Assembly: GCA_013151235.1 (NCBI GenBank)
Contig: JAADIO010000016.1
Location: forward strand, 62,001 to 100,552
Source: Deltaproteobacteria bacterium
GTDB lineage: Bacteria; CG2-30-53-67
DNA: 38,552 nt
Direction of reading: 5' to 3'
Shown here: piece after piece, positions 6,197 through 37,816 of the stretch
How the letters are laid out: the number at the start of each line of letters is the position of its first letter
Numbering within the stretch: position 1 is the stretch's first letter
Made by a program: the position numbers and the translations under genes
Notes under the pieces: generated by a model
Database searches by the model: none
The model's input: only the letters and a program-made list of their open reading frames with translations
What the model was told of the DNA's origin: nothing

Positions 6197-6556
6197 ATGG
6201 TTCTGGTAGATACTTCAATTTGGATATCTCATTTCAGGGATAACAATCAGCGCCTCAAAAAGCTTTTGATAGATGAATCGGTAGCATGCCATCCTTTTGT
6301 CATTGGTGAGTTGGCCTGCGGTAACATGAAGAACAGAAAAGAAGTTATCTCCCTCCTCCAATCTCTTCCTCAGGCCCTTGTTGCAGAGCATGATGAAATT
6401 CTTGCATTGATTGAGCACAAGAAACTAATGGGCGCCGGAATAGGCCTTATTGACGTTCATATATTGGCATCCGCACTGTTGACAAATTTGCCTTTATGGA
6501 CAGCCGACAAAAGGTTGAGTGCATCTGCAATGAAATTGAATATTTTATATAGATAA
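6197..6556 (+). CDS. vapC: Type II TA toxin, VapC PIN-domain ribonuclease
   Basis: VLVDTSIW...GEL...IDVHILASA...LWTADKRL PIN motifs. Lower GC than the flanks. Confidence 0.9.
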   Translation: MVLVDTSIWISHFRDNNQRLKKLLIDESVACHPFVIGELACGNMKNRKEVISLLQSLPQALVAEHDEILALIEHKKLMGAGIGLIDVHILASALLTNLPLWTADKRLSASAMKLNILYR

Positions 6557-6605: not shown

Positions 6606-6647
6606 CAAGACGAAGAAGACATTTTTTATCCTGTTTTGGAGGGTTTG

Positions 6648-7067
6648 GTGAAACTGACGCGGGGCGGCGAATATGGAATTCGGGGAATGCTTTATCTGGC
6701 CATGCAGCCGGAGTCCGCAGTTACCCTTTTAAGTGAAATTTCTACGGTCGAAAAGATTCCCGAAAGTTATTTGGCGAAGATTTTTCAAACGCTGACGAAG
6801 GTCGGCCTGGTCCGTTCCCACCGTGGTTTCAAGGGGGGCTATTCATTAGGGCGGTCGTCCGGTGAGATTACCGTCAAGGATATCATTGAAGGGGTAGAAG
6901 GGCCGATTGTTCTGAATCATTGTCTCCAGAAGGTGAGTAACTGTTCCGAGGGATACCGATGCAAGATCCAGAATGTCTGGAAAGATGCACAGGATGCCAT
7001 GATCGGGGTCCTTGACGGAACGACCCTTGCAGATTTGGTGAAAGAGACCGCGGCGGGTCAGCCGTGA
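6648..7067 (+). CDS. Rrf2 family (IscR/NsrR-like) Fe-S transcriptional regulator
   Basis: KLTRGGEYGIRGM, YLAKIFQTL, SHRGFKGGYSL; three Cys (CLQKVSNCSEGYRC). GTG start after GGAGG. Confidence 0.9.
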   Translation: MKLTRGGEYGIRGMLYLAMQPESAVTLLSEISTVEKIPESYLAKIFQTLTKVGLVRSHRGFKGGYSLGRSSGEITVKDIIEGVEGPIVLNHCLQKVSNCSEGYRCKIQNVWKDAQDAMIGVLDGTTLADLVKETAAGQP

Positions 7068-7154
7068 AGGGAGTGTCCCGGCCCATAACCTTTCCGATGG
7101 AGAAGTGATGCCGGCAGTTTCGAGTGAATATTGTGATGAATCAAGGAGGGTGTT

Positions 7155-8330
7155 ATGAGCAGCAGAACAGTTTATCTCGATCATGCGGCGGCAACCCGTC
7201 CCTATCCCGAAGTGATCGAAGCGATGCAGCCTTACTTTCTGGAACATTTCGGGAATCCCATGAGCTTCCATAAATACGGCAGCGCTCCCCGGGCGGCACT
7301 GGAGGAGGCCCGGAGCGCCGTAGCCGGCCTGATCCATGCGAAATCCGAGGAGATCTTCTTCACCGCCTCCGGGACGGAGTCAAATAACTTTGCCGTCAAA
7401 GGGGTAGCCCTGGCCCTGCAGAAGAAGGGAAAGCATATAATTACCTCGGCCATCGAACATTACGGAATTCATCATTCCTGCAAGATGCTGGAGCGGATGG
7501 GGTTCGAGACGACCTATCTGCCGGTCGACGAATTCGGTCGGGTCGATCCGGAAGAGGTCGCAAAGGCACTCCGGGAGGATACGATCCTGGTCTCGATTAT
7601 GCTGGGGAACCACGAGGTCGGCACGCTCCAGCCGATCCGGGAGATCGCCAAGATCACCCGGGCGAGAAAGGTGACCCTCCATACCGATGCCCGGATGGCC
7701 GTTGGGCACATTCCCGTTGATGTGGAAGCATTGGGGGTGGATCTTTTGACCCTCTCCGGGCAGCACTTTTACGGCCCCAAGGGATCGGCCGCCCTTTATA
7801 TTAAGAAGGGGGTTCGCATTCAACCGTTAATCCACGGCGGGATCCAGGAACAGGGGCGCCGTGCGGGAACGGAGAACGTTCCGGCCATCGTTGGATTAGG
7901 CAAGGCGGCGGAGATCGCCTCGGAAAAGGTTGCCGGGGAACAGGCGAGGCTGGCGGCCCTTCGGGACAGGCTGGAGCAGGGTCTGACCGCAAAGATTGAT
8001 GCCGTGAAGGTGAACGGCCATCCTGAATATCGGCTTCCCCACCTGCTGAATATCTGTATCAATTACGTAGAGGGAGAGGGGATGATCATGATGATGGTTG
8101 CAAAGGGGATTATGGCGGCCAGCGGATCGGCCTGTTCCTCCAAGGCGCTCAAGGCCTCCCATGTACTCACGGCGATGGGGGTGGACCATGCCATGGCCCA
8201 GGGGTCGATTCTCTTCAGCCTGGGCCGGGAGACGGCGGAGGAGGAGATCGACTATGTCGTGGCGGAGATGCCGCCCATTGTCGAACGTCTCCGGATGATG
8301 TCGCCCATCTACCAGCAAAAAATGGGATAG
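7155..8330 (+). CDS. IscS/NifS-family cysteine desulfurase homologue lacking the PLP-binding Lys (probable pseudo-desulfurase)
   Basis: Group I fold motifs YLDHAA, FGNP, FTASGTESNN, RAGTENVP, SGSACSS. But SGQHFYGPKG replaces SGHKxYGPKG, and SILFSLG replaces SIRFSLG. Confidence 0.88.
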   Translation: MSSRTVYLDHAAATRPYPEVIEAMQPYFLEHFGNPMSFHKYGSAPRAALEEARSAVAGLIHAKSEEIFFTASGTESNNFAVKGVALALQKKGKHIITSAIEHYGIHHSCKMLERMGFETTYLPVDEFGRVDPEEVAKALREDTILVSIMLGNHEVGTLQPIREIAKITRARKVTLHTDARMAVGHIPVDVEALGVDLLTLSGQHFYGPKGSAALYIKKGVRIQPLIHGGIQEQGRRAGTENVPAIVGLGKAAEIASEKVAGEQARLAALRDRLEQGLTAKIDAVKVNGHPEYRLPHLLNICINYVEGEGMIMMMVAKGIMAASGSACSSKALKASHVLTAMGVDHAMAQGSILFSLGRETAEEEIDYVVAEMPPIVERLRMMSPIYQQKMG

Positions 8331-8381
8331 GGGTAATAATCGATTTTCATGAGGCCGTCCGGGAGAGGGGATGGGAAGAAT

Positions 8382-8777
8382 ATGACCGAAAAGATGGCGA
8401 TGGTGGTGTCGACCAACGAAATCGACAAGTTGATTACCATATTCAACCTGGCTTTGGGAGGGGCCTCCATGGGAATGGAGGTGATTCTCTTCTTCTCCTT
8501 TCACGGCCTGGAGCTTCTGAAAAAGGACAAATCCGGCGACAGCTATCAGAAACCGGATCGATCCCTGGAAAAGATGATGGCCCACCCCAAGTTCCCCTCG
8601 ATTGATCAGATGGTCATCATGTGCAAGGAAATGGGGGTCAAATTTATTGCCTGTTCCCAGTCGATGGAGTTCATGGGGCTCACCCGGGAGGATCTCCTTC
8701 CCGTGGTCGACCGTGTGGCCGGAGTGGCGACCTTTCTGGCCGATGCGGGGGATGCAAAGATTAATCTCATGCTGTGA
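8382..8777 (+). CDS. DsrE/DsrF/DrsH-like sulfur carrier
   Basis: GGASMGMEVILFFSFHGL and GVKFIACSQSMEFMG (conserved Cys), VAGVATFL. Confidence 0.85.
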   Translation: MTEKMAMVVSTNEIDKLITIFNLALGGASMGMEVILFFSFHGLELLKKDKSGDSYQKPDRSLEKMMAHPKFPSIDQMVIMCKEMGVKFIACSQSMEFMGLTREDLLPVVDRVAGVATFLADAGDAKINLML

Positions 8778-9073
8778 ATGAGGAGATGTCGATGAAGACC
8801 AATGCAATCAAGGCCGATGTCGTGCTGGACGCCTTCGGCCTGATCTGCCCGATGCCGATTGCCAAGACCTGTCAGGCGATCAAGAACATGGAGGTGGGAC
8901 AGGTGCTGGAAGTGATTGCCGATGATGAGGGGATCGTGGAGGATATGCCCAGCTGGTGCGACACAACAGGCAACGAATTCCTGGGCATTACCGAGGAGGA
9001 CGGTGAATTCCATGCCCTCGTTCGGAAGCGGGCCGATGAGAAGGAAAAGTGCGATCGTCCTCCCTGTAATTAG
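8774..9073 (+). CDS. tusA: TusA-family sulfur carrier protein
   Basis: LDAFGLICPMP (CPxP), GQVLEVIADD, DMPSWC. True start may be the ATG near 8792. Confidence 0.88.
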   Translation: MNEEMSMKTNAIKADVVLDAFGLICPMPIAKTCQAIKNMEVGQVLEVIADDEGIVEDMPSWCDTTGNEFLGITEEDGEFHALVRKRADEKEKCDRPPCN

Positions 9074-10344: not shown

Positions 10345-11250
10345 TCAAGAGGGGGCAAAAAATGTGTACTCCCGGATAAAATCATAGAATGTCCTTGTTG
10401 CAAGGGAGAGATTTTCCTCCGCTCCACGGACCAGGAAGAAGTCTCTATGTAATTGTTTCCCGGAAGGGTTCAAGATCCGGAGGGTTCCCTCCCGCAATCC
10501 CGCTGCGGCGGACCATCTTGAGACGAAGGCGATCCCGATTCCGGATCTGACCATGCGGACAATAAGGCCGGGGCGGTCGAGAGTCATCAGGATCCTTATC
10601 TCGCCCGGTTCGATCCTGCGTTGATGGAAGAACCGGTCCGCGCAGCTTCGCATACCGGTCCCCACGGGGGGCAGGATGAAGGGTTGTGTGACCAAATCAC
10701 GGGAGGAGATCCGCTCTTCCCGGGCCAGCGGGTTTTCATCGGATGCGATGAGGACGATTTCATCCCGGGCCAGAAGGTCATAGCGGAGGGTGCGATGGGG
10801 GACCTGTCGATCCACGAAGCCGATATCGACCTTGCCGTCCAGCAGGTACCCGATGATTCGTTCCGTCCCGCCCGTTTGAAGGTGAAGGCTGACCTCCGGG
10901 TAGCTTAGGAGGAAGCGGTAGAGCACGGGTGTGAGGAGACTTCCTGCAATTGTCTGGTCGGCGCCGATCGGCAGGACACCCCGCACCTTCTCTGTTATCT
11001 GATCGACGGCCTCTTCCAGCTTCCGGAACTGGCCCAGGATCTTCCGGGCGTGTGCGTAAAAAACCCTTCCCGCCGATGTAGGAACGACGGACCTCCCCCT
11101 CCTGTTCAGCAGCCGGACCCCCATCTCCTCTTCCAGGTTCCGGATAAGATGGCTTACGGCGGACTGCGTGAGGAGTTGGGCTTCCGCCGCCTTCGAGAAG
11201 CTTCCGTGTTCCACGACCAGGCAGAAGGTCTGTAGCCGGTGATCATCCAT
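10345..11250 (-). CDS. LysR-family regulator (CysL-like)
   Basis: HTH GSFSKAAEAQLLTQSAVSHLIRNLE, 301 aa. Divergent from the tup operon. Confidence 0.92.
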   Translation of the reverse strand: MDDHRLQTFCLVVEHGSFSKAAEAQLLTQSAVSHLIRNLEEEMGVRLLNRRGRSVVPTSAGRVFYAHARKILGQFRKLEEAVDQITEKVRGVLPIGADQTIAGSLLTPVLYRFLLSYPEVSLHLQTGGTERIIGYLLDGKVDIGFVDRQVPHRTLRYDLLARDEIVLIASDENPLAREERISSRDLVTQPFILPPVGTGMRSCADRFFHQRRIEPGEIRILMTLDRPGLIVRMVRSGIGIAFVSRWSAAAGLREGTLRILNPSGKQLHRDFFLVRGAEENLSLATRTFYDFIREYTFFAPS

Positions 11251-11308
11251 AAGATTTCATGGTCCTTCGTTGACGTCCCTCTTGCCGCTGTCCTGGAAAA
11301 GGGAACAA

Positions 11309-11325
11309 GATGAACGGAATTCATC
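11309..11325. promoter_or_regulatory. Putative LysR binding site
   Basis: Inverted repeat GATGAA-CGGAA-TTCATC containing T-N11-A. A second ATGAATTCAT at 11337-11346. Confidence 0.55.
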
Positions 11326-11414
11326 CGGAAGGTGAGATGAATTCATTTGCTTTCCCGGTCTCTCCTATCATATATATCCCCATCTCGTTTTACAAAAGAA
11401 AAAAGGGGGGAGAG

Positions 11415-12206
11415 ATGGCAAAACCGGTCCGGATCATGATGGCGTCGACGAGCAGTGTCCAGAACTCGGGGCTGCTGGACCGCCTGATCCCCGCCTACGA
11501 GAAGGCCACCCCCTATCCTGTCCGCGTCGAGGTCCTGGCCGTCGGTACGGGGAAGGCCATCCGCCTGGCGAAACGGGGGAAGGCGGATCTTCTCCTGATC
11601 CATGACCCCTTCCGTGAAGAAAAGTTTGTCCGGGAGGGTTACGGGGTAAACCGGAGAGAGGTCATGCACAACGGGTTCGTGCTTCTCGGACCCGCGCGGG
11701 ACCCTGCCGGAGTACGGGAGGCGAAGAGCATCCGCGGGGCCTTCGAGAAGATCGCCCGGAGCCGTTCTCCCTTCGTCTCCCGCGGGGACGACTCGGGGAC
11801 GAACATGAAGGAGATGGACCTCTGGGAGGACTGCGGCATTCAGCCCGGGGGCAAGGGCTGGTACCTGGAGACGGGAGGGGGAATGGCGGAAACCCTCGCG
11901 GCCGCCGGCCGGGCCCGTGCCTACACCCTCTGTGACGAGGGAACCTATCTCAACCATAACAGCGGATCGGACCTGGAGATTCTGCATCGCGGAGATCCCT
12001 GCCTGGTCAACGTGTACAGTCTCGTGGTCGTTAACCCGGCCCGCTTCCCGGCCGTCCGCTACCGGGAGGCGATGGACTTCATCGCATTCTGTACCTCGCC
12101 GGAAGGCCGACATCTGATCGGAGCATACGTCAAGCACGGCTCCCGTCTCTTCGAACCTGAAGGGATGGACGCCCTGCCGCCTTTCCGGGAATCACCCCTT
12201 TCGTGA
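11415..12206 (+). CDS. TupA-like tungstate-binding protein without a signal peptide
   Basis: ASTSSVQNSGLL, VGTGKAI, FVSRGDDSGT. ATG at 11415 after a GGGGAGAG RBS starts directly at the mature domain. Confidence 0.85.
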   Translation: MAKPVRIMMASTSSVQNSGLLDRLIPAYEKATPYPVRVEVLAVGTGKAIRLAKRGKADLLLIHDPFREEKFVREGYGVNRREVMHNGFVLLGPARDPAGVREAKSIRGAFEKIARSRSPFVSRGDDSGTNMKEMDLWEDCGIQPGGKGWYLETGGGMAETLAAAGRARAYTLCDEGTYLNHNSGSDLEILHRGDPCLVNVYSLVVVNPARFPAVRYREAMDFIAFCTSPEGRHLIGAYVKHGSRLFEPEGMDALPPFRESPLS

Positions 12207-12219
12207 AGGAGGTTCGCCC

Positions 12220-13038
12220 ATGTCTCTTATGCGTCTTCTGCAGTGGTTCCTGGTCCTTTCGTTCCTCTTCCCGCCCGGCGTTTCCGCGGCCGTGCGGATC
12301 CGTTGTGCCTCGACGACAAGCACACAGAACTCGGGGCTTCTTGATTACCTGCTGCCGCTTTTCGAAAGGGAGAGCGGTATCCATGTCGATGTCGTGGCCG
12401 TCGGAACCGGGGCCGCCCTGGAGATCGGGAAAAGGGGGGATGCCGATGTGGTTCTCGTCCACGCGAAAGACCTGGAACTCAAGGCGCTGAAAGCGGGGTT
12501 CTTCGTCAAGCGCAGGGACGTTATGTACAACGATTTCGTGATCCTGGGACCTCCTGCCGACCCGGCCGGTATCCGTGGGGCGGCCACGGTTCCGAAGGCC
12601 TTTCGACTGATCGCTGCGAAGGGGGCTCCCTTTGTGTCGAGGGGGGACCGGTCGGGGACCCATCACCGGGAACTCTTCCTGTGGAAGAAAGCCGGGATCA
12701 GCCCGAAGGGGAGGCCCTGGTATATGGAGGTGGGGCAGGGGATGGCGAAGACGCTCCGGATCGCCTCGGAGAAGCAGGCTTACACATTGAGTGACCGGGG
12801 GACATGGCTTGCCGTGTCCGACCGTGACCGGCTTGCCCTTTCGATCCTTTACGAAGGGAGCCCTCTTCTCCGCAACCAGTATGGCGTCATGGCGGTCAAC
12901 CCTGCAAAACATCCCCATGTGAAATATCCGGAGGCCATGAAGCTGATCCGTTGGCTGACCTCCCCGGCGGGACAGAAGGCGATCGCCGCCTTCAAGGGGC
13001 CGGGTGGGCAGCAGCTCTTCTTCCCCGATGCCCGCTGA
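12220..13038 (+). CDS. tupA: Tungstate ABC transporter periplasmic binding protein
   Basis: Signal peptide (..GVSA-AVR), ASTTSTQNSGLL, VGTGAAL, MYNDF, SRGDRSGTH. Confidence 0.92.
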   Translation: MSLMRLLQWFLVLSFLFPPGVSAAVRIRCASTTSTQNSGLLDYLLPLFERESGIHVDVVAVGTGAALEIGKRGDADVVLVHAKDLELKALKAGFFVKRRDVMYNDFVILGPPADPAGIRGAATVPKAFRLIAAKGAPFVSRGDRSGTHHRELFLWKKAGISPKGRPWYMEVGQGMAKTLRIASEKQAYTLSDRGTWLAVSDRDRLALSILYEGSPLLRNQYGVMAVNPAKHPHVKYPEAMKLIRWLTSPAGQKAIAAFKGPGGQQLFFPDAR

Positions 13039-13073
13039 CCGGGCGGTGAGGAAGAGAAGGGAGAGGATGTGTG

Positions 13074-13769
13074 ATGGACGTTTTCCTGCAGGCCTTTGCG
13101 ATGATCCTCCAGCTCAAGCCGGAGCTGTTGCATATCATACTCCTTTCCCTCAGGGTATCCGGTCTTGCCCTCCTGGCGGCCACGCTTCTCGGGCTGCCCC
13201 TCGGTGCGGTTATGGGGATTGCCGTATTTCCAGGCCGGTCCCTTGCGATCACCCTGGCCAACACCTTTATGGGATTGCCTCCCGTTGTGGTCGGGCTTGT
13301 TCTCTATCTGCTCCTGTCCCGGAGCGGTTGCCTCGGTTTTCTCGGCCTGCTCTATACCCCTTCGGCCATGATCCTGGCCCAGACTATTCTCGCCCTGCCG
13401 ATCGTGGCTTCTCTCTGTCATTCGGCCATCGTCGGCGTAGATCCCCTGATCAGGCAGGCCGCTTCGACCCTCGGGGCGACCCCGTTGCAGCAGACGCTGA
13501 CCGTTGTGGGCGAGGCGCGCTACGGGATCCTCTCCGCGATCATTGCCGCCTTCGGCCGGGTGATGGCGGAGGTGGGGGCGATCCTGATCGTGGGTGGGAA
13601 CATCGCAGGTTATACCCGGGTGATGACGACGACGATTGCTTTGGAGACCGACCAGGGTGAATTTGAGCTGGCCCTGGCGCTGGGTATGGTCCTCCTTTCG
13701 ATCTCCCTTGTGATTAATCTCTTCCTGCATTACGTGCAGCAGCGCGGAAAGGTGCATTCCCCCCGATGA
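13074..13769 (+). CDS. tupB: Tungstate ABC transporter permease
   Basis: NTFMGLPPVVVGL, FGRVMAEVGA, GGNIAGYTRVMTTTIALE. Confidence 0.92.
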   Translation: MDVFLQAFAMILQLKPELLHIILLSLRVSGLALLAATLLGLPLGAVMGIAVFPGRSLAITLANTFMGLPPVVVGLVLYLLLSRSGCLGFLGLLYTPSAMILAQTILALPIVASLCHSAIVGVDPLIRQAASTLGATPLQQTLTVVGEARYGILSAIIAAFGRVMAEVGAILIVGGNIAGYTRVMTTTIALETDQGEFELALALGMVLLSISLVINLFLHYVQQRGKVHSPR

Positions 13770-14419
13770 AACTCACCTTCGGCATCGAGGATATTGCGAA
13801 ATCGTACCGGGGAATGCCGGTGCTGGCAGGCTGTTCCGCACGCTTCGACCGGCCCGGTGTTTACTGCCTGACGGGGCCGAACGGGAGCGGCAAGTCGACC
13901 CTTCTGCGCCTGTGCGCCCTGCTCGAAAGGCCGGACAGCGGCAGGGTCCGCTACCTTAATTCGGGGCATCTGTTGCCTGCGGACATATCCCTGATGCGGC
14001 GTATTACCCTGGTCCTGTCGAAGGTAGGCTTGTTCCGGGCCACGGTCGGCGGGAATGTCGCCTACGGGCTTAAGGTCCGGGGTGTTCCGTGGAGGGAGCG
14101 GAAGGAGCGGGTAAACAGGGTTCTCGCGCAGCTTGGCCTCTCCCACAAGGAGAAGGACCCGGTCTTCGCCCTTTCGAGCGGAGAGGCACAGCGGGTGGGG
14201 GTCGCCAGGGCACTGGTGCTCATGCCGGAAGTCCTGTTTCTCGATGAACCGACGGCCTTCGTAGACCGGGAGAGCAAGGGGATGATCGAGCGGACCATCA
14301 TGGACATGAAGGAGGAAGGGAAGTCGATCGTGGTCCTGGCCACCCATGACCGTTCCCAGGTGAAACGGCTGGCCGACCGGGTTTTCGTTATGGAGGATGG
14401 CAAGATTCTCGAAACTTGA
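13766..14419 (+). CDS. tupC: Tungstate ABC transporter ATP-binding protein
   Basis: Walker A GPNGSGKS, LSSGE signature, LFLDEPT. ATGA overlap with tupB. Confidence 0.9.
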   Translation: MKLTFGIEDIAKSYRGMPVLAGCSARFDRPGVYCLTGPNGSGKSTLLRLCALLERPDSGRVRYLNSGHLLPADISLMRRITLVLSKVGLFRATVGGNVAYGLKVRGVPWRERKERVNRVLAQLGLSHKEKDPVFALSSGEAQRVGVARALVLMPEVLFLDEPTAFVDRESKGMIERTIMDMKEEGKSIVVLATHDRSQVKRLADRVFVMEDGKILET

Positions 14420-14620
14420 TGAACTCGTAAAAAGTCATTTCCCGGATACCGTTCATGGTTCGACAGGCTTCCGAGCATGTGGTTCGGCAAGCTCACCATG
14501 CTCGGAAGCCGGTCGAACCACACGAACGGAATATCAATCACTTACACCGTTCGCCCTGAGCGTGTCGAAGGGTCGAACGGACTTTTTACGACTTCATCAA
14601 ACTTGATGAACTCGTAAAAA
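14416..14620. mobile_element. MITE-like element with 21-bp TIRs and nested REP hairpins, plus an extra orphan TIR
   Basis: TTGATGAACTCGTAAAAAGTC (14416-14436) and GACTTTTTACGACTTCATCAA (14580-14600) are 20/21 inverted. Internal 23-bp inverted repeat. Third TIR at 14603-14620. Homologous copy at ~36632-36785. Confidence 0.75.
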
Positions 14621-14651
14621 CAGGTTTTCTGCAGGCGAAAAGGAGGAGGAG

Positions 14652-15971
14652 ATGGGGAAAAGGATGTTTTGGAAGAAGGGATTGATCCTCTTGACGGGGG
14701 TCCTGATGGCGGGAGCGGTTCTCTTCCCCCGGCCGGTCTTTGCCCGCGGGTTCTTCAGCGGCGATACCGATACGGAGGAACTGATCCGGGTGCTGAAGGA
14801 GAAGGGGCTTCTGACGGATCAGGAGGTCGCCCGGATCAGGACACGGATTGAGCATGGGCGGAAGGCCGCTTCCCTGAAGATTCAGGGAAGGATCCAGGCC
14901 CGGTACACGAGTATAGAGGATCATGCCGGGACGACTGCGCAGGATGCGAACGGGTTCCGGCTCCAGCGGGTCCGGCTGATCTTCAGGGGGAATGTCGTGC
15001 CCCGTCTCGGCTATTTTATTCATCTGAATTTCGACCAGGGAACGGACGGCCACGTGTGGGATACCTACCTTCAGTACGATTTCGGTCCGGGAATCGGTCA
15101 TGTCCGCATCGGCCAGTTCAAGGTCCCCTTCGGCCGCCAGTGGCTGACATCATCCACGAAGTTCCTTTTCATGAACCGCAGCAATATCGGTGACAACCTC
15201 GGTTTCCGCCGGGATATCGGGATCATGTTTGAGCGTCACTCCGCTTACAACCAGGGTGCCTTCGCCCGGGAGAACATGAAGGAGCCGGTCTGGAATTATT
15301 CCGTCGGGATCTTCAACGGGAACCACAGGGCGAACGGCAACGGTTTCCTCTCCGGTTCCGACAGTTCCGCCCGGATCGGTAAGGGGAATGACAACGACCA
15401 GTATCTATACGTGGGCCGTCTCACCTGGACCCCCGTGAAAGGGGATCGGGGGCTCAAAAGGGTAAGCCTCGGCCTGAGCGCCGGATATCAGCGCAGCCCG
15501 ACGAACGGGGACAAGTTCGTTCTCGACGATTCGAAAAAGGCGGCCTTCGACGTCTCCTCGGGCGAACCCTGGAAGTTCTCCGATTACGAGGCGGCCTGGG
15601 GCGCGGACGGCCAGGTCATCATCGGGCCGGCCATCATCCAGGCCGAGTATATCCGTCGGAAGCTGAAGACCGACGATCTGCTTACCTTTGCCGACGGTGA
15701 CCGGGCCCGGTCGGTCACAGCCGACGGGTGGTATCTGCAGGGGGGGTATTACGTGATTCCCGGAAAACTTTCTCTGAACGCCCGTTACGAGACCTACGAC
15801 CCCAACCGTGCGGTCACCTCGCGAAATGATTACAGCCGTTATGCCCTGGGGTTCAACTATTACATCCGCAAGAACCGGTTCAAGCTCCAGGGAGATTACA
15901 CCTGGCAGGACGAGGCCGTGGAGGATCTGAGCAACAACTTCTGGGAGTTGCAGTTGCAGGCGCTGTTCTGA
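14652..15971 (+). CDS. Outer-membrane porin, OprO/OprP anion-selective-like
   Basis: Signal peptide, GRIQARY, FRLQRVRL, GQFKVPFG, RDIG, C-terminal QLQALF. Downstream of tupABC. Confidence 0.8.
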   Translation: MGKRMFWKKGLILLTGVLMAGAVLFPRPVFARGFFSGDTDTEELIRVLKEKGLLTDQEVARIRTRIEHGRKAASLKIQGRIQARYTSIEDHAGTTAQDANGFRLQRVRLIFRGNVVPRLGYFIHLNFDQGTDGHVWDTYLQYDFGPGIGHVRIGQFKVPFGRQWLTSSTKFLFMNRSNIGDNLGFRRDIGIMFERHSAYNQGAFARENMKEPVWNYSVGIFNGNHRANGNGFLSGSDSSARIGKGNDNDQYLYVGRLTWTPVKGDRGLKRVSLGLSAGYQRSPTNGDKFVLDDSKKAAFDVSSGEPWKFSDYEAAWGADGQVIIGPAIIQAEYIRRKLKTDDLLTFADGDRARSVTADGWYLQGGYYVIPGKLSLNARYETYDPNRAVTSRNDYSRYALGFNYYIRKNRFKLQGDYTWQDEAVEDLSNNFWELQLQALF

Positions 15972-16017: not shown

Positions 16018-19000
16018 CTATTCCATCTTCTCGATCAGTCCATCCTTGGACAGCCGGTAGGCGTGGTTTCCGGAGAGACCGGCAATCTCCGCCGGCGTAA
16101 AATGTCCGGGGTGGTAATAGCAGATCTGGATAACCGGTTTTTTGCATTGTCGAAGAAAGTGGTCCATCTTTTTCTCAAAATAGAAGATCTCTTCCTTACC
16201 GTTTTCGTCGGAGAGGAGTCTTGACATGTCCCGGACAACAATTAGCCCCTTCCATGCGGATTGTGTGATCTGATCATAGAAGTTCCTGACACAGTTGAAA
16301 AGGTGCTTCCCGTCGCATTGTCCCTGGTGCAGAAGCGCGGTCCTGGCCGAGCTGAAAATCAACTGTTCCTTTTCCATCAATTCATAGGTCGGCAGGTTCT
16401 CGCCGGAAAGAATTTCCTTGGTCCGGTCAATATCCTCCGGAGACCCGAAGAAAGCGCAGGCAAAGTCACGGGCCAGGTAGCTTTTCCAGAGGGGAACGAA
16501 TTTTCGGATCAGGACATCGGTCTCCTCATGGACCTCAATGACGTGCTGTACGGAGACGGCGTGACGATCCAGCGGCAGCGTGAAGAAGAAGGTGGCGCCT
16601 TTCCCCTTGCGGCTCTGTACCCAAATGTTCCCGCCGTAATGTTCCACGATGTTCTTTACGACGGAGAGCCCAAGACCGCTTCCCTGGTTTTTCCGGATCG
16701 ACTTGTCCATGACCCTTCCGAACTTTTTGAAGAGCATGTCCTGGAACTTTTTTTCGATCCCCGGTCCGGAGTCACGGACGGAAAAACGGAAGAGGCGTTC
16801 TTCCCGAATCGTTTCAGCCCGGACGGAAATTTTGCCTCCCCGGGGAGTAAATTTGATAGCGTTGTCCATGAGGTTTGAGATGACCTGTTTAAGGCGTCCT
16901 GTGTCGGCCGTAAAGCCGGGAAGGTTCTCCGCTATTTCCGTTTCGAGATGAATCTTCTTTTCGCGCAGCCGGGAATCGAAGGTCTGAAGCATGTCGAGAA
17001 TCAGCGTATGTAAGTCGATTTCGTCTTTCTTGAAATCGACAAAACCTGATTCCAGTTTCGAAAGATCCAGGTAATCGTTGATCAGCTGGGTCATGCGAAA
17101 GCTTTCCTGTGTGATAATGCCGAGGAATTCTTGGCGCGTCTCCGGAGGTTCATCGGGATACTTTTGAAGCAGATCGGCGTAGCTGACAATGGAGGTCAGT
17201 GGTGTGCGCAGGTCATGGACGGCAATATCAATGAATTCCGATTTCTCCAGGTTCAACTCTTTCAACCGTTCATTCGTCAGCCGGAGTTCCGCATTGGCTT
17301 CCCGCAATTCCTGTACCCGTCGTTCTACTTCCTGTTCCATTCTGCGGTTTACATCCTCCAACTGTTTCAGGTATTTTTTTCGTTCCTCCTCAAGGGTTTG
17401 CCGGTCCGTGACGTCCTGGCGAATCTGGATCATGGAACAGGACCCGTCGGGGTTTTTCAAGGGGACGGAGGTCATCCGGTAGTATCGACCGTCTTCGTTT
17501 CTTTTGGTAACCTCAAAGCGAGTCTTCTTTTTCCCCAGGATCTCCGTGAGAGAGCAGACTTCATCTTTGCAGGATTCGTCGAAGCCGCGAAAGACCTTGT
17601 AGCATTTTCGTCCCACAATCTCTCCGAAGTGCCGCCGGATCGGGTCGTTTACGAATTCGATCTCATAATCCTTGTTGATGACACAGACCCCTTCCCCCAT
17701 ATTCATGAGGATCGACTCCATCCGTTCCTTCTGGTCCATGAGAGCCTCGGTGAGAGTGGTGACCTCCGTGACGTCGTTGATCGTTTCAATGATCTGTTCC
17801 ACCTTACCGTCTTCTCCGAAGAGCGGGATCGCGCTCACTTCGGCGATGATCCGGTTTCCGTTGTTGCTCCTCAAGCGATGCTGATACCGGGAGGGGAGTC
17901 CGTTCCTGATGATCTCATCGGTCGGGCAGTGTGTACAGGGTTCCTCTTGCCCGCGGAAAATCTTGTGGCAGGTTTGTCCATTTAGCTCCGCTTCGGAATG
18001 ATGAAGCATCTTCTGCAGGGCATGATTGGTGGAACGGATCCTGTGATCCGGGGTGATCACACAGATCCCCATACTGGCATTGTTTAGGATGGTTTCCAGG
18101 TAGGTGTGGGCCTGTGCCAGTTCCTGGTTGTTCTTTTTCAGCAGTTTTCTGGAGGTCTCCAGTTCCTGTGTCTTTGTTTCCAGCTCCTGATTCGAGAGGT
18201 TGATCTCTTCGTTGGTCGATTCAAGTTCCTCATTGGAAATCTGTAACTCCTCATTGGCGGATTCCAATTCTTCATTGCTGAGCTGATACTTTTCGTTGAG
18301 TTCCTCCAATTCCCGGTTGGCCCGGATTAAAGAAAGATTTTTTTCCGCCACGTCCTCCTGCGAACGTTTGAGAGTGTTGAGCATGTAGTTGAAGGCCCTG
18401 TGCAGTCCGCCGAACTCGTCTTTCCGGTCTTCCTTCAGATGAAACGAAAAATCTCCCTCACTGATCTTCTTAACGGCTGTCATCAGGTTGCGAAGCGGGG
18501 AGGCGATCGTCCTGGAGAAATAAAAGAAGCTGAAAGGAATGAGGAACGCGAGAAAGAGAGCGGTCAAGATTAATGTGGTCAGGAGCCTTGCATTCATTCC
18601 GGCTTCGGCCTTGCCGGCAAGATTCCGGGATTTCCGGAGGTTGGAGGTGATGCTCTGTAGTTGTTGTGATGCCTCCGCAACGGATCGGTTCAGGTCATGT
18701 AGTAGGATATTCCCCCGGGGATTCCCGGTCGGAGGAGTGTGCATGCGGAGTTGCTCCCCCGTTTGAATGATTTTGTTGAGAACGGCTACCAGGGATTGGA
18801 TCGGGGCCTGGTTCTCAGCCGGCCATGAATCGGTTTTTAATTGCCTGATGGCTTTGTGAAGAGCTCCGAGGTTTTGTCGTAATGCGTTCCCGTTGTCCGG
18901 ATTCCTCGACAGGAGAAAATCCCGGCAGGCGAAATCTGTTTGATGCAGGGTGTTTTTGATCTCTTCAATTTTCGAGAGAGATGCCTCCATCCGGTGCGTT

Positions 19001-19113
19001 TTTTGCTCTGCATGGGAGCCTTCCTGGAAGAAATAGAACGCAAGGAGCAACGTAACGCTCAACATCATTCCCATCGCGGCCAGTTCCAGATAAATTTTGG
19101 TCCGGATCTTCAT
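16018..19113 (-). CDS. Membrane sensor histidine kinase: TM-periplasmic helical domain-TM-HAMP-NEEL coiled coil-PAS-PAS-HisKA-HATPase-MEDS-like
   Basis: HAMP PLRNL..DEFGGL..AFNYM; H-box HDLRTPL; N-box NLMDNAIKF; G boxes DSGPGI and GSGLGL; C-terminal ICYY..F...NH. Confidence 0.9.
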   Translation of the reverse strand: MKIRTKIYLELAAMGMMLSVTLLLAFYFFQEGSHAEQKTHRMEASLSKIEEIKNTLHQTDFACRDFLLSRNPDNGNALRQNLGALHKAIRQLKTDSWPAENQAPIQSLVAVLNKIIQTGEQLRMHTPPTGNPRGNILLHDLNRSVAEASQQLQSITSNLRKSRNLAGKAEAGMNARLLTTLILTALFLAFLIPFSFFYFSRTIASPLRNLMTAVKKISEGDFSFHLKEDRKDEFGGLHRAFNYMLNTLKRSQEDVAEKNLSLIRANRELEELNEKYQLSNEELESANEELQISNEELESTNEEINLSNQELETKTQELETSRKLLKKNNQELAQAHTYLETILNNASMGICVITPDHRIRSTNHALQKMLHHSEAELNGQTCHKIFRGQEEPCTHCPTDEIIRNGLPSRYQHRLRSNNGNRIIAEVSAIPLFGEDGKVEQIIETINDVTEVTTLTEALMDQKERMESILMNMGEGVCVINKDYEIEFVNDPIRRHFGEIVGRKCYKVFRGFDESCKDEVCSLTEILGKKKTRFEVTKRNEDGRYYRMTSVPLKNPDGSCSMIQIRQDVTDRQTLEEERKKYLKQLEDVNRRMEQEVERRVQELREANAELRLTNERLKELNLEKSEFIDIAVHDLRTPLTSIVSYADLLQKYPDEPPETRQEFLGIITQESFRMTQLINDYLDLSKLESGFVDFKKDEIDLHTLILDMLQTFDSRLREKKIHLETEIAENLPGFTADTGRLKQVISNLMDNAIKFTPRGGKISVRAETIREERLFRFSVRDSGPGIEKKFQDMLFKKFGRVMDKSIRKNQGSGLGLSVVKNIVEHYGGNIWVQSRKGKGATFFFTLPLDRHAVSVQHVIEVHEETDVLIRKFVPLWKSYLARDFACAFFGSPEDIDRTKEILSGENLPTYELMEKEQLIFSSARTALLHQGQCDGKHLFNCVRNFYDQITQSAWKGLIVVRDMSRLLSDENGKEEIFYFEKKMDHFLRQCKKPVIQICYYHPGHFTPAEIAGLSGNHAYRLSKDGLIEKME

Positions 19114-19982
19114 GGTTTTTTCCCTTGAGTTGCTTTCTGATAAATTCTGTTTCTGGAGGAGAGTGTGACCAATTTTTTCTGCCGGAAGTGAGGGGGAGGA
19201 GATTCAGCTTTTCCCAGGACCAGAATCCCTTCGGGATTCAGATTCTCGTAAAATTTGCGGTAGATCTCTTCCTGGGCGGCACTATTCAGAAAAATAAGGA
19301 CATTTCGGCAGAAGATCAAGTCAAGATGGTTGATGGAGGCACCCTGCAGCAGATCGTGACGACCGAAGATAATTTGTTTGCGTACTTCCGGAACAATCCG
19401 GGCAACCTTTCCGGGAAGAAAATATTTTTTTCGGATTTTCGTAGAAAGGTTTGCCAGTGCCTCCGGAGGGTATTCTCCTTTCCGGGCTTGTGCAATGACG
19501 ATCTCGTCCACATCGGTAGCGAAGATCCGGACCGGATGAGTCGACAGGTTCGGCCGGACGCTTTCAAGAAGGGAGATGGCCACGGAGTACGCCTCCTCTC
19601 CCGTGGAACATCCGGTAATCCAGATACGGAATTCACGTTTCCGGAAAGATCCGTGTTGTTTCCAGAGTAACGGCAGGACATGTTCCTGGAGGAAGACAAA
19701 GACCTCGGGATCGCGAAAAAACCGGGTGACATGAATCGTTAAGTTGTTGATCAGGTTTTGGGGTGTCCGGTCGTCCCGTTCAATCAGATCCGAGTATTCC
19801 CGGTGGTTTTTCAGCCGGTTTTTCGTCAATTGCCGCCGAATCTGTCTTTGCAGGTATCCTTCTTTGTAATGATGAAAATCAACGGAAGTTTTCAAAGAAA
19901 GGCGATGAACCAGCTCGGACAGGGAACTCCCGGGGGGAATAGGCGGTACTTTGACCGTACTTGTCTGGTCTGAAAAAGACAA
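19110..19982 (-). CDS. cheR: CheR-type protein-glutamate O-methyltransferase
   Basis: TIHVTRFFRD, RIWITGCSTGEEAYS, IFATDVD, DLIFCRNVLIF, LGKAE. Probable TTG start at 19982 after AGAGG (track start 20027). ATGA overlap with the kinase. Confidence 0.9.
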   Translation of the reverse strand: MSFSDQTSTVKVPPIPPGSSLSELVHRLSLKTSVDFHHYKEGYLQRQIRRQLTKNRLKNHREYSDLIERDDRTPQNLINNLTIHVTRFFRDPEVFVFLQEHVLPLLWKQHGSFRKREFRIWITGCSTGEEAYSVAISLLESVRPNLSTHPVRIFATDVDEIVIAQARKGEYPPEALANLSTKIRKKYFLPGKVARIVPEVRKQIIFGRHDLLQGASINHLDLIFCRNVLIFLNSAAQEEIYRKFYENLNPEGILVLGKAESPPPHFRQKKLVTLSSRNRIYQKATQGKKP

Positions 19983-20029
19983 TGGTTTTTTTCCTCTTTT
20001 GTACCATTCTGAGACGATAGATATCAAAA

Positions 20030-20058: not shown

Positions 20059-20135
20059 GGTGCATGTTTGTGCATAAAGGATTGACAGTTCCGGGGCGTT
20101 CAACTATTTTAAGGGCGGATGTGGTGGAGGTAGGC

Positions 20136-20810
20136 ATGCCCGGGGATCTTGGAAAGCAGATCGAAACACTCAGCCGGAAGCTTCAGTTAAGCGGGGAATG
20201 TCGGCGTATTTTTAATATCGGTATTCCTGAAGAAGATCTTCTTCTGACCCTGCAACGGTTGTACAAATGGCGGATGACCGCATCCATGAGGAAATGGAAC
20301 TGCTATCGGGAGGTGATCAACACCATTCGCGGCAATTCGGTCTTTTTGACTAATTTCCTCTCCGTTGATCTGTCTGTGCGGAAAAAGATGCTTGCGGCCC
20401 TTCATGCTCTCTATCTCATTCCCGATCTGAATTACCGGGACCGCCTGATTCTTCTGACAAAATTCGTCCTGGCCCAGATCAATCCCCTGGGCAATCCGGA
20501 AATGCGCCAGCTGGCGATCAACATGGTTCGGGAGTTTGTCCTCCATAAAAACCGGGAGATCCGCAAGGCCACTTTCCGGGGAATTACCTTTGAAGTGGCC
20601 CGCCTCCGGTTGAAGGGGGGCGGGTGGTATGTTCAGCCGCTGGTCGATATGTTGGTCGAAACCCTGAGAGAGAATCCGGAAACAAGAGAATATATCCGCA
20701 GGGAGTCGATGGAAATTTACTACACCCGGGAACAGCGGGATGTCGTCGATGACATCCTGGTGGCCGTGACCTTGAGCCTGTCTCCCGACAGAAAGGAACG
20801 GAAGCATTGA
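20136..20810 (+). CDS. Hypothetical alpha-helical protein
   Basis: GGAGG RBS before ATG 20136. Stop overlaps the next start. No recognised motif. Confidence 0.7.
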   Translation: MPGDLGKQIETLSRKLQLSGECRRIFNIGIPEEDLLLTLQRLYKWRMTASMRKWNCYREVINTIRGNSVFLTNFLSVDLSVRKKMLAALHALYLIPDLNYRDRLILLTKFVLAQINPLGNPEMRQLAINMVREFVLHKNREIRKATFRGITFEVARLRLKGGGWYVQPLVDMLVETLRENPETREYIRRESMEIYYTREQRDVVDDILVAVTLSLSPDRKERKH

Positions 20811-21559
20811 AACTGACCATCCTCGGTTCCGGAACAGGCTTTCCCTCCTCCCTCCGGGGAGGACCCGGTTATCTTGTGCAATCGGATGAAGAGATGGTCC
20901 TGATGGATCTCGGGATGGGGACTCTGTCCAAACTCCATGGCCTGGAGATTCCTCTGGACCGACTCGGTCCGATTCTGATCAGCCATCTTCATCCGGATCA
21001 TATCGCCGAACTGGTTTCGCTCCTCTTTGCTCTGAAGAATATCGTTATTTCCCGGAAGGTTCCTCTCCGGTTGATCGGCGGCCCCGGTTTAAAGGAACTT
21101 GTCCGTCGGCTTCAGGAGGTTCATGGACGGTGGATCCGGCCGGAACGGTTTGAACTTGAGGTCCTGGAGGTTCCGGAAGGGGAGATCTCCCTGGGGGAAC
21201 TTACCCTTCGGACGGTGCCGGTTGTTCATACGGAGGGAAGCATCGGTTTCCGCCTTGCCGCTCCGACCGGTGAATCCCTGGCCTACTCCGGGGACTCCGC
21301 CTTCTGTCCCGCCCTGATGGATCTCGTGCGGAATGTTGATCTTGCCGTCATGGAGTGTTCCTTCCCCGATGAACAGAAGAAAAAAGGACACCTCATCCCC
21401 TCGGAAGTGGGGAAAATCGCCGCCGGAGGCGGAGCAAAAAGGGTGGTGTTGAGCCACCTCTACCCGGAATGTGACGCAGTTGACCTGGCCGTCCAATGCA
21501 GAAGCCATTACAAGGGTGAGGTGATCGTCGCCCGGGATGGGATGGTCCTAACGGTTTGA
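20807..21559 (+). CDS. MBL-fold metallo-hydrolase, RNase Z/BN-like
   Basis: ILGSGT, SHLHPDH (HxHxDH), YSGDS, GHL, LSHLYP. Confidence 0.88.
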   Translation: MKLTILGSGTGFPSSLRGGPGYLVQSDEEMVLMDLGMGTLSKLHGLEIPLDRLGPILISHLHPDHIAELVSLLFALKNIVISRKVPLRLIGGPGLKELVRRLQEVHGRWIRPERFELEVLEVPEGEISLGELTLRTVPVVHTEGSIGFRLAAPTGESLAYSGDSAFCPALMDLVRNVDLAVMECSFPDEQKKKGHLIPSEVGKIAAGGGAKRVVLSHLYPECDAVDLAVQCRSHYKGEVIVARDGMVLTV

Positions 21560-21595: not shown

Positions 21596-21856
21596 ATGAG
21601 TCGCGAAGTTTTAATCTATACCACTCCGGTCTGCCCTTATTGTGTTCGGGCGAAGGCCTTGCTTACCCGAAAAGGGGTATCCTTCCGGGAGATTGACATC
21701 TCCCGTGACCGGGATCTGGAGGCGGAAATGATCCGTCTCACGAAAAAGATGACGGTTCCCCAGATCCTGGTCGATGGTAATCCGATCGGGGGGTGTGACG
21801 AGCTTCATGAGCTTGAGCACCGGGGAGTGCTGGACGAGCTTCTGCAGGGCGGGTAA
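21596..21856 (+). CDS. grxC: Glutaredoxin 3
   Basis: CPYC, TVPQI, IGGCDEL. Confidence 0.92.
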   Translation: MSREVLIYTTPVCPYCVRAKALLTRKGVSFREIDISRDRDLEAEMIRLTKKMTVPQILVDGNPIGGCDELHELEHRGVLDELLQGG

Positions 21857-21876
21857 TTCTTCTGCGGGGATGCCTT

Positions 21877-22440
21877 ATGGATGAAACGCAATATTGCCTT
21901 TGCTGCGACGAAGATGTGCCGATCAATACGGTCTATCGTGACGGGAAGAAAGAGATTACATGCCTGTATTGCGGTTTCGTCCTCGGTTTTCAGGAAGAGA
22001 AGAAAGGGGCGTCCGCAAGCTGTATCCTGACGGCGGATGATTCAAACCTCATACGTAATCTTTTAACGGATATCCTGACGAACAAAAGGCTTGCCGAAGA
22101 TGTCTTATCCTTTGAAAACGGGATGACCTTTCTTGCGGAATTCAACCAACGGATCATCCGTCCGGACGGAGTGAGCCTCGTCATCCTTGATCTTCAGATG
22201 CCGGTTATGGACGGACTTAAAACGGCGCTGACCTTGCGGGCCGTTGAGACCAAACTACAGCGGGACAAAAAGACACCGATTATCTTTTTTTCGGCCCGGA
22301 AGTGTGACGAGGCATTAAAAAAACAGCTTGCCCGGTGTGCGCCGGCCGTCTATTTCAATAAGGGAGACAGCCCGGATCCGGCCAATCTTGCCGATCGTGT
22401 CGACCGTCTGGTCAACTACATACTCACCCGGAAAAAGTGA
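21877..22440 (+). CDS. Response regulator receiver protein with N-terminal zinc ribbon
   Basis: CLCC...CLYCG, then REC motifs ADDS, ILDLQMPVMDG, FSA, NKG. Confidence 0.82.
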   Translation: MDETQYCLCCDEDVPINTVYRDGKKEITCLYCGFVLGFQEEKKGASASCILTADDSNLIRNLLTDILTNKRLAEDVLSFENGMTFLAEFNQRIIRPDGVSLVILDLQMPVMDGLKTALTLRAVETKLQRDKKTPIIFFSARKCDEALKKQLARCAPAVYFNKGDSPDPANLADRVDRLVNYILTRKK

Positions 22441-24766: not shown

Positions 24767-24853
24767 TGGTGCCGAAGGGGGGAGTCGAACCCCCACGGGA
24801 TTGCTCCCACTGGTCCCTGAAACCAGCGCGTCTACCAGTTCCACCACTTCGGC
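24767..24853 (-). tRNA. tRNA-Leu(CAG)
   Basis: GCCGAAG acceptor stem, anticodon arm CTGGT-TTCAGGG-ACCAG, long variable arm, GTTCGA T-loop, encoded CCA; 87 nt. Confidence 0.97.
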
Positions 24854-27206: not shown

Positions 27207-27575
27207 TCAGACAAAACGAATTTCTTTCATGGGATAGTGTTTCCGGTTCTTGGTCCAGAGGGCAAATCCGTAAAGCTTCGCTGTTGCGGCAATCAAGGCG
27301 TCGACAGTGTGTATGCCGTTGGACTTTGAATATTTCATCAGATAATGACCGGCCTGCTCGCCGATATCATCAGTGACCGGGACGGAAGTGAAGAGGTTGA
27401 AAAAGGCCGCTGTATTCTTTTCTTCACCCTTCCGGATTCCGGCGTAGACTTCCGCCTTGCTGAGCGGGGAATAGTGAATGAGTTTTCCTTTTTGGTAAAG
27501 TTTTTGCAGCTTGGAGACTATTTCTTTCCTGTTCCTGAGGTAATCTATGATTACATCCGTATCGAGCAAGAGCAT
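27207..27575 (-). CDS. vapC: Type II TA toxin, VapC PIN domain
   Basis: LLDTDVIIDYLR, AEVYAG, DALIAATA, WTKNRKHY. Confidence 0.9.
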   Translation of the reverse strand: MLLLDTDVIIDYLRNRKEIVSKLQKLYQKGKLIHYSPLSKAEVYAGIRKGEEKNTAAFFNLFTSVPVTDDIGEQAGHYLMKYSKSNGIHTVDALIAATAKLYGFALWTKNRKHYPMKEIRFV

Positions 27576-32547: not shown

Positions 32548-32970
32548 ATGAAGAGATCACGAATTCGGATACCCCCTGAGTCAGTGTTGCATCGAATCGG
32601 GGAGAAGTACGATCTCAAACTGATTCTCCTGTTCGGTTCTCAGGTTACCGGCAGGGTGCATGAGATGAGCGATATTGATATTGCCGTTCGAACCCGGTCA
32701 GGCAAGGGGGTCAAATTCGCCGATCTCCTCGATCTTACGGCCGATCTTACAGGACTCTTTGAGAAGGATGTGGACCTTTCCGTCCTGGATCATGCCGATC
32801 CGCTCTTCCTCTATAATGTTGTGGAAGGAGCGCGACTTTTGTGCGGAGAAGAGAAGGACTTTGACGCATTACGTTTGAAGGCCTTCAAAAAATACCAGGA
32901 TTTTCGTCCCATTCTTGAACTGGAACGGCAATTTCTCTTGAAGGAATATAACGCGGGAGTAATGCCATGA
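32548..32970 (+). CDS. Minimal nucleotidyltransferase antitoxin (MntA, type VII TA)
   Basis: LFGSQVTG...SDIDIAV (GSX10DXD), VDL. Confidence 0.88.
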   Translation: MKRSRIRIPPESVLHRIGEKYDLKLILLFGSQVTGRVHEMSDIDIAVRTRSGKGVKFADLLDLTADLTGLFEKDVDLSVLDHADPLFLYNVVEGARLLCGEEKDFDALRLKAFKKYQDFRPILELERQFLLKEYNAGVMP

Positions 32971-36785: not shown

Positions 36786-36854
36786 AATGATTTTTTTTTG
36801 CATCTGGTCTACGTTAAGATATGCTAATCGTAGCTTAGTGTGTACCGAGATGTC

Positions 36855-37635: not shown

Positions 37636-37660
37636 TGTGACCAGATCCGCTCTCCGGGTT

Positions 37661-37696
37661 CCCCCCCGTTCGACAAAGGGGGGCCAGGGGGGATTC
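37661..37696. repeat. CCCCCC-N-AAAGGGGGG..AGGGGGGATT repeat
   Basis: Same family as 32351-32384 and 15985-16006. Confidence 0.65.
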
Positions 37697-37816
37697 GATC
37701 TTTCTATTTGTGGCGGTTGTTTCTTGTGGAATTGATATCCTGCACATGGTGTGTTATGGTCATAAAGCGAGAAATTATAATATTTCTATGAATGAATTGG
37801 ATTGCGAGGTGGAAAG

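Follow-up and report, generated by a model that had tools for sequence, protein, structure and literature searches.

A cheR gene overlapping a sensor histidine kinase gene with chemoreceptor-type heptads, and its probable place among the methyl-accepting coiled-coil systems

The DNA considered here is 38.5 kb out of a deltaproteobacterial contig of 100,552 bases (JAADIO010000016.1, positions 62,001 to 100,552), and this whole stretch is referred to as the window, with all coordinates counted from its first letter. On its reverse strand lies a cheR gene, encoding a protein-glutamate O-methyltransferase, followed by a gene for a membrane-bound sensor histidine kinase that carries behind its HAMP domain a run of acidic heptads of the kind found in the methylation helix of chemoreceptors. 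The two genes are probably a small operon in which the methyltransferase tunes the kinase.

The cheR-kinase pair and the domains of the kinase

The TGA stop of cheR and the ATG start of the kinase overlap by 4 bases as ATGA, which is read directly in the sequence and agrees with a preliminary description of this DNA. No terminator-like site was found between the two genes, and a consensus scan predicted no promoter for the pair. The cheR reading frame is open from a first TTG at 20027, which would give a gene of 19110-20027; the start at TTG 19982 that the preliminary description had used is kept as the better one, because AGAGGA, resembling a ribosome-binding site, stands 9 nt upstream of it and because a CheR relative at 78% identity (P0122) begins at the aligned position equal to this TTG. 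The features of the pair are as follows.

19110..19982, minus strand: cheR, protein-glutamate O-methyltransferase, 290 aa from TTG 19982
16018..19113, minus strand: sensor histidine kinase, 1031 aa, its start overlapping the cheR stop
19027-19095, minus strand: first transmembrane helix, about aa 8-29, hydropathy peak
18589..19026, minus strand: predicted extracytoplasmic sensor, aa 30-175, a four-helix bundle in the AlphaFold2 (AF2) model
18520-18588, minus strand: second transmembrane helix (TM2), about aa 177-198, hydropathy peak
18367..18519, minus strand: HAMP, aa 199-249, Pfam E 9.5e-13, aligning with the HAMP of Tar and Tsr
18106..18336, minus strand: coiled coil of the methyl-accepting coiled-coil (MAC) type, aa 260-336, 11 in-register heptads without Gly or Pro
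17404..18102, minus strand: two PAS domains, about aa 338-451 and 460-570, Pfam
16567..17244, minus strand: kinase core, HisKA aa 624-690 and HATPase_c aa 737-849, Pfam E 8.5e-18 and 3.6e-31
16063..16545, minus strand: C-terminal MEDS domain, aa 857-1017, Pfam PF14417, E 3.3e-17, above cutoff

The order of the kinase is hence a transmembrane helix, a four-helix sensor, a second transmembrane helix, HAMP, an acidic heptad coil, two PAS domains, HisKA/HATPase_c and MEDS. The preliminary description had this order correctly as far as the kinase core, as Pfam and hydropathy confirm, and had overlooked the MEDS tail. Pfam matches to the sensor are sub-threshold only (HBM 7e-4, CHASE3 0.015), and in the AF2 model the sensor region has helices at aa 2-69, 73-94, 99-124 and 132-218, with predicted local distance difference test (pLDDT) scores mostly of 72-88 by block and lower, at 53 and 61, in two of 18 blocks. 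The AF2 monomer of the full kinase, built from a 7-sequence alignment, has a mean pLDDT of 67, and a fold search with it returned histidine kinase cores only. The H-box HDLRTPL and the G-boxes are recognisable in the kinase sequence, and the Pfam match of the second PAS domain begins at about aa 466. Each PAS domain has a triad of cysteines (C382/C393/C396 in the first and C504/C515/C520 in the second), the columns of which are conserved in all six close relatives and absent in the distant relative P0008; these triads may be a metal or redox cofactor site.

The MEDS domain follows the ATPase domain, which is the place of the receiver in hybrid kinases, and it is kept in six of six close kinase relatives. 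MEDS has been classed as an inactive KaiC-like domain (PMC5847659) and is described in the literature as a sensor domain of kinases and regulators. In the full AF2 model the region has an alternating beta/alpha pattern, and no sequence match for the domain was found in the PDB. The single-sequence AF2 model of MEDS alone has a mean pLDDT of 48 and was for this reason kept out of the fold search.

The heptad coil and the chemoreceptor methylation helix

The heptads beginning with SNEELES, which the preliminary description had placed at about 18170-18310, are present and in register, and their position is refined to aa 279-313 (nt 18175-18279), with the core EE/QE pairs at aa 281-317 (nt 18163-18273). 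The third column of the heptad is Leu or another hydrophobic residue, the seventh is Asn in 8 of the 11 heptads, and the 48 residues of aa 273-320 include 15 that are acidic and 2 that are basic. The regularity of this stretch was scored by a detector that takes the best count of [EQ]E[LIVMF] among six positions spaced by seven. The kinase has the motif in register in all six consecutive heptads and so scores 6, and over 2643 open reading frames (ORFs) of at least 100 aa, taken from the window and from 80 cheR loci dealt with below, the score was 0 in 2023, 1 in 524, 2 in 20, 3 in 3 and 4-6 in 73. Not one of 20000 composition-preserving shuffles of aa 274-322 reached four heptads.

It is apparent that the pairs are under a different constraint from the sensor in front of them, as on aligning seven family members, with one at only 25% overall identity, the periplasmic sensor is seen to diverge while E281/E282, E288/E289, E295/E296, E302/E303 and E310 are invariant in all seven. 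The residue encoded at aa 309 and at aa 316 is a glutamine, which the six closest family members all keep, whereas P0008 deviates at aa 309 and carries an insertion ahead of aa 316. In the AF2 model the coil is part of one unbroken helix, aa 228-345, reaching from HAMP across the heptads to PAS. No Pfam family was found for the coil segment, and MCPsignal (PF00015) had no match in the whole kinase at E up to 0.01 or in aa 241-345 at E up to 10. For many coil-bearing relatives (P0005, P0011, P0019 and others) the Pfam annotation computed beforehand includes PF28019, PF28159, PF28175 and PF28256, which may be newer models spanning the coil; the four were never matched in our own Pfam scans, P0011 included, and the window kinase is without them.

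When aa 186-345 of the kinase were compared by BLASTP with Tar of Escherichia coli K-12, an ungapped alignment of 105 residues was obtained (25% identity, pairwise E 1e-9), in which kinase residues 196-300 lie on Tar 209-313 and E282, E289 and E296 fall on Tar 295, 302 and 309. HMMER against the Tsr chains in the PDB gave the same register, with these three glutamates on Tsr 297, 304 and 311 (E 2.4e-3). Tar 295, 302 and 309 and Tsr 297 and 304 are positions that we take to be methylation sites. The consensus of the methylation sites of methyl-accepting chemotaxis proteins (MCPs) is [EQ][EQ]xx[ASTG][ASTG], which was checked on Tar and Tap and occurs in Tar at exactly 4 places (294, 301, 308 and 490); in the kinase it is present only at 281, 295 and 316, and there are 8 matches in the 9478 residues of 36 other window proteins. 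A true MCP, P0430, with 4HB_MCP, HAMP and MCPsignal, has QE, EE, EE and EQ pairs that align to the four EE pairs of the kinase. Tsr Q311 is named as a methylation site in the available text of PMC11291126, and that of PMC10561060 has sites 1-3 of Tar sharing one helix. Judged by these alignments, the kinase coil corresponds position by position to the HAMP-proximal methylation helix of Tar and Tsr.

CheR, its association with the heptad, and the surrounding genes

The product of cheR has the two expected Pfam domains, CheR_N at 39-85 and the CheR S-adenosylmethionine (SAM) domain at 100-280 (E 1.2e-49), and matches the CheR structures of Bacillus subtilis (5FTW, 5e-33) and Salmonella (1AF7/1BC5, 6e-27). 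The core motifs FFRD, GCSTGEE, ATDVD and FCRNVLIF are intact in the alignment, and the NCBIfam equivalog for CheR of the E. coli type gives 127 bits only against a cutoff of 435. Aligned to 1BC5, the window CheR has a 5-residue deletion spanning the G188-G194 loop, where the residues of the pentapeptide-binding loop are those listed in the available text of PMC2577667. Because of this deletion the enzyme would be of the pentapeptide-independent type, and the C-terminus of the kinase has no receptor pentapeptide tail.

The lineage of this CheR is a separate one. The enzyme groups in a clade with ten relatives of 46-78% identity, after which the matches drop to about 40%, with stand-alone CheRs at 36-40% identity among them, some of which are named chemotaxis CheR by their source. 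Two trees were made, a quick one of 140 rows and a careful one of 57 rows that holds 22 of 69 fused and 22 of 48 stand-alone CheRs by random draw. In both, the window clade of 11 rows is monophyletic (support 100/100, stem 1.14) and lies outside the clade of CheRs fused in MAC proteins (98/89), and also outside the side with E. coli CheR and the CheRs of chemotaxis clusters. A grouping with flagellar CheRs, which the preliminary description had named as a result that would speak against its reading, is thus seen in neither tree.

The heptad itself is found far beyond this family. A search with aa 190-345 of the kinase gave 900 proteins at E <=1e-3 among 8000 scored candidates, and in the best 120, which were listed, the heptad run is present in every one and a CheR domain stands in the same chain in 104; the 16 without it include the window kinase and seven relatives. 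A genome scan with the alignment of the window CheR clade gave at least 80 loci, all 33-41% identical and with no close relatives among them. In 70 of these 80 the heptad run is within the CheR-bearing ORF itself and in one (L029) it is in the ORF next to CheR, with the remainder made up of two that score 3, three that leave the contig, two that end without a run and two stand-alone CheRs, one of which (L018) adjoins MCP-like genes. The fused proteins have the domain order CheB, CheR, coil, PAS_10, PAS and kinase, and a consensus of E-E-L-Q/E-S/T/A-S/T/A-N is common to the window family (43 heptads), the fused proteins (437) and kinases in which the coil follows HAMP (155). A tblastn search of CheR against plasmids likewise returned mostly fusion genes among the 40 records listed; the same search with the HAMP-coil segment matched HAMP only, the coil being suspected of having been masked as low complexity. 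In this material the association of the heptad with CheR is near-obligate.

The split, membrane-bound form of the heptad is also common. An exhaustive search of a representative library with aa 1-345 of the kinase gave one protein at E <=1e-30, the family's own representative, and 61 at E <=1e-10. The heptad run is present in 55 of 148 new representative matches, and these 55 comprise 36 proteins with kinase domains, one MCP and a rest that is HAMP-only and mostly short, with 4HB_MCP, CHASE3, HBM or Cache as sensors; no CheR domain was found in any of these 55. The top pairwise alignment spans HAMP into the coil in 49 of 59 comparisons, ungapped in nine of the 49, and those 49 alignments have [EQ][EQ] at all four pair positions in 30 cases and at three in 13.

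Relatives of the kinase, of CheR and of a receiver protein that is also encoded in the window occur on contigs of the same size, namely P0002 (kinase), P0122 (CheR) and P0242 (receiver) on contigs of 13450 bases, P0005 (kinase) and P0124 (CheR) on contigs of 6785 bases, and P0006 (kinase) and P0255 (receiver) on contigs of 50284 bases. The receiver protein is the following.

21877..22440, plus strand: zinc-ribbon and receiver protein, 187 aa, candidate partner only, Pfam Response_reg E 3.6e-12

This gene lies 1.9 kb and three genes from cheR. The preliminary description had no response regulator adjacent to the pair, which holds for the immediate neighbours and does not extend to the window as a whole. 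The protein has an N-terminal ribbon of four cysteines and an intact Asp pocket, with C7, C10, C29, C32 and D105 invariant in 13 sequences and D54 present in at least 90%. It is a candidate partner of the kinase, in a family (84 matches, several named from Nitrospirota) that is much wider than that of the kinase. A glutaredoxin gene precedes it (the two together at 21596-22440, plus strand), and one receiver relative, P0244, is called as a single glutaredoxin-receiver protein. Chemotaxis genes other than cheR are missing from the neighbourhood, as the preliminary description had said of MCP, CheA, CheW and CheB, for a Pfam scan of 41 window ORFs gave no domain of the MCPsignal, CheA, CheW or CheB kind, and the window ORFs of 100 aa or more were without a match to the CheB esterase.

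The rest of the window is of a mixed nature. Divergent from cheR is an ORF at 20064-20810 (plus strand) with no Pfam match, for which a HEAT-like solenoid is a lead only (template modelling score 0.45-0.55, Atlas model from residue 25) and which overlaps the start of a gene of the metallo-beta-lactamase fold at 20807-21559. At 10345-15971, convergent with the kinase gene, are a LysR regulator, two PBP_like_2 binding proteins, an ABC permease and ATPase and a porin of the phosphate-selective type, which looks like an oxyanion uptake cluster. An Rrf2 regulator, a class-V aminotransferase resembling cysteine desulfurase, a DsrE-like protein and TusA stand in a row at 6636-9073 (plus strand) and look like a sulfur-relay cluster. 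Genes of the toxin-antitoxin type are found at 6197-6556, 27207-27575 (minus strand), 32548-33416, 36840-37791 and 37983-38348 and comprise three PIN-domain ORFs, a nucleotidyltransferase/HepT pair, and AbiEi with a short AbiEii fragment, whose 133 aa match no more than the beginning of a profile of 238 positions. A single RNA gene was found by ARAGORN and by Rfam at gathering score.

24767-24853, minus strand: tRNA-Leu (CAG)

Known systems and a probable methylation-tuned kinase

The pair is not without precedent. MAC proteins were identified by Wuichet & Zhulin 2010, and profiles for MAC1 and MAC2 have since been built (MiST 3.0, available text of PMC6943060); such proteins hold both receptor and kinase functions (bioRxiv 10.1101/2022.05.07.491037). 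The cheR-kinase pair matches MAC2, an assignment made by class description only, in that receptor and kinase are in one protein, the EE-heptad coil is outside MCPsignal, CheR is separate and yet associated, and there is no CheA or CheW. It differs from MAC2 in that the window family adds the C-terminal MEDS domain and the Cys-triad PAS domains, and in that there is no CheB nearby. The MAC1 proteins, annotated as 'two-component system CheB/CheR fusion protein', share the heptad consensus and a coil followed by PAS and often by a kinase, whereas in them CheB and CheR are joined to the chain ahead of the coil, and both a membrane sensor and HAMP are lacking; in the window cheR is a gene of its own, its product falls in a clade of its own, and the coil comes after HAMP. 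Since the class had already been named as MAC1 and MAC2, the novelty that the preliminary description implied was overstated.

The closest tested system is RsbK/RsbM of Bacillus cereus, in which, according to the available text of PMC4574943, rsbM shares an operon with the gene of the hybrid kinase RsbK (CHASE3, HAMP, GAF, S-helix, HK, CA, REC), RsbM methylates the signalling helix of RsbK in vitro and RsbM keeps RsbK off in vivo. The same text cites 127 RsbK-like kinases in 10 phyla and calls RsbM an orphan methyltransferase, and the genomic association of RsbK with CheR was found by de Been and colleagues, as reported in the available text of PMC12848376. Taken from what these texts describe, the two systems have in common a transmembrane sensor kinase, a HAMP domain, a helix before DHp and a methyltransferase in the same operon, and RsbM, without a cognate esterase, sets the output of RsbK by methylation. 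They differ in gene order, rsbM being downstream of rsbK whilst in the window cheR comes before the kinase, and in domains, with GAF replaced by PAS and REC by MEDS and with CHASE3 matched only at E 0.015. RsbK/RsbM is described as sitting in a sigB partner-switching cluster together with RsbY, a response regulator of the PP2C type, and no sigB or PP2C gene was found in the 41 window ORFs scanned. Three of the representatives (P0366, P0349 and P0357) have the CHASE3/HAMP/GAF/coil/kinase/receiver make-up described for RsbK, and by analogy with these the RsbK helix may have the same heptad. Beyond RsbK/RsbM the literature search turned up no other experiments on MAC proteins or on CheB/CheR fusions, the latter occurring in annotation mentions only.

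With the MCPs Tar and Tsr the kinase shares a four-helix periplasmic sensor, TM2, HAMP, methylation helix 1 and an identical spacing from HAMP to the sites, and it differs from them in having no MCPsignal, hairpin, second methylation helix or C-terminal pentapeptide and in that its output is its own kinase core. In effect the kinase would begin as a chemoreceptor does, with the sensor, TM2, HAMP and methylation helix 1 that make up the first half of one, and would continue, in place of the CheA-binding hairpin, with PAS domains and the core of a class I kinase. Because there is no hairpin or second methylation helix, the coil is expected to be in a two-helix rather than a four-helix bundle, and because the kinase is a dimer this should be a parallel two-stranded coiled coil with the Leu and Asn columns as its core positions. 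In the EE pairs it is the second Glu on which the co-translated CheR, with SAM, would place a methyl ester; E282, E289, E296 and E303 are the likely sites, with perhaps E310 and E317 behind their encoded Q. Neutralisation of charge would then change how the helix connecting HAMP with PAS and DHp packs or rotates, and this in turn would shift the on/off set-point of the kinase for a given sensor input. The methylation, the residues that would take it and its sign are here inferred.

On balance the genes are probably a two-gene operon of the MAC2 or RsbK-RsbM type, in which a class I kinase is tuned by the coupled CheR through methylation of its EE heptads. The preliminary description had put forward a kinase tuned by CheR methylation, and this gains comparative support from the Tar/Tsr alignment and from the linkage of heptad and CheR, as well as a precedent in RsbK/RsbM, while belonging to a class that had already been anticipated. 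A number of points weigh against it. The CheR phylogeny gives no tie to the MAC enzymes, because the window clade is outside the fused-MAC CheRs, and the heptad is also met where no link to CheR is in view, as in the 36 of the 55 heptad-positive representatives that are kinases without a CheR domain. The equal-sized contigs of the kinase and CheR relatives fit a conserved linkage without proving adjacency, and the P0005 kinase is called from an internal Met and starts inside HAMP. The AF2 monomer, made from 7 sequences, has a pLDDT below 50 over aa 279-320, and the numbering of the Tar sites and of Tsr 297 and 304 is a presumed one.

The same findings bear on what else the two genes might be doing. 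CheR might serve ordinary chemoreceptors encoded elsewhere, its position before the kinase only coupling expression and the coil not being its substrate; only 38.5 kb of the contig is in view, the window clade is not nested among the fused-MAC CheRs, and there are stand-alone CheRs at 36-40% identity, some named chemotaxis CheR and one, L018, next to MCP-like genes. Set against this are the 4-base overlap with the kinase, the equal separation of the clade from the E. coli and chemotaxis-type side of the tree, the lack of any MCP, CheA or CheW in the window, and a kinase with exactly the MCP-site heptads that are otherwise almost always fused to CheR, so that we regard it as improbable. A purely structural coil, a dimerisation and signalling helix with EE pairs for packing, salt bridges or partner binding that is never methylated, is held to be equally hard to credit. 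Acidic coiled coils are common, the segment has no Pfam or MCPsignal match, and there are the kinases with the heptad and no CheR in the chain; chance composition never gives the register in shuffles, however, and the Tar and Tsr sites are matched position by position, without a gap over the 105 residues of Tar, as are the four pairs of the MCP P0430; CheR is fused in 104 of the 120 listed matches, and RsbK is methylated on the equivalent helix in the available text of PMC4574943.

A different matter is the permanence of the mark. The preliminary description had called CheR an orphan and the mark possibly one-way, and with 38.5 kb of the contig in view both terms are tentative. Methylation may be real and also reversible, with a CheB or CheD from outside the window demethylating or deamidating the coil in a true adaptation as in chemotaxis, and although we lean away from this it is a serious possibility. 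Encoded glutamines at the methylation sites of MCPs are sites of deamidation by CheB or CheD, and those at aa 309 and 316 are kept in the six closest family members; moreover, a CheB esterase domain is present in 65 of the 70 fused CheR-coil proteins of the listed loci, and in an adjacent ORF in one more. There is, however, no CheB-like ORF in the window, 80 of the 104 CheR-bearing proteins among the listed matches to aa 190-345 are without a CheB domain, and the available text of PMC4574943 states, with data not shown, that deleting the sole CheB was without effect on RsbK/RsbM. The place of MEDS, where RsbK has its inhibitory receiver, suggests in addition that MEDS might sense whether the coil is methylated, binding to the modified helix and to DHp and so latching the kinase off; if the system has no esterase, the mark would then be one-way and reset by protein turnover only. 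This is a speculative and rather unlikely extension, and if true the kinase would be one derived from a chemoreceptor with a new kind of autoinhibitory module, and the CheR mark would be one of maturation or memory.

To return to the reading of a kinase tuned by its coupled CheR, what is new at this pair is the MEDS tail, the Cys-triad PAS domains and the separate CheR lineage. As the substrate helix aligns residue by residue with the receptor sites of E. coli, site-directed tests would be straightforward, and RsbK/RsbM is the only tested analogue found in the literature for a class of proteins that is widespread, the heptad being carried by more than a third of the new representative matches to the N-terminal 345 residues of the kinase. 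The pair is thus a predicted case of the adaptation module of chemoreceptors acting outside chemotaxis, on what is otherwise an ordinary two-component kinase.

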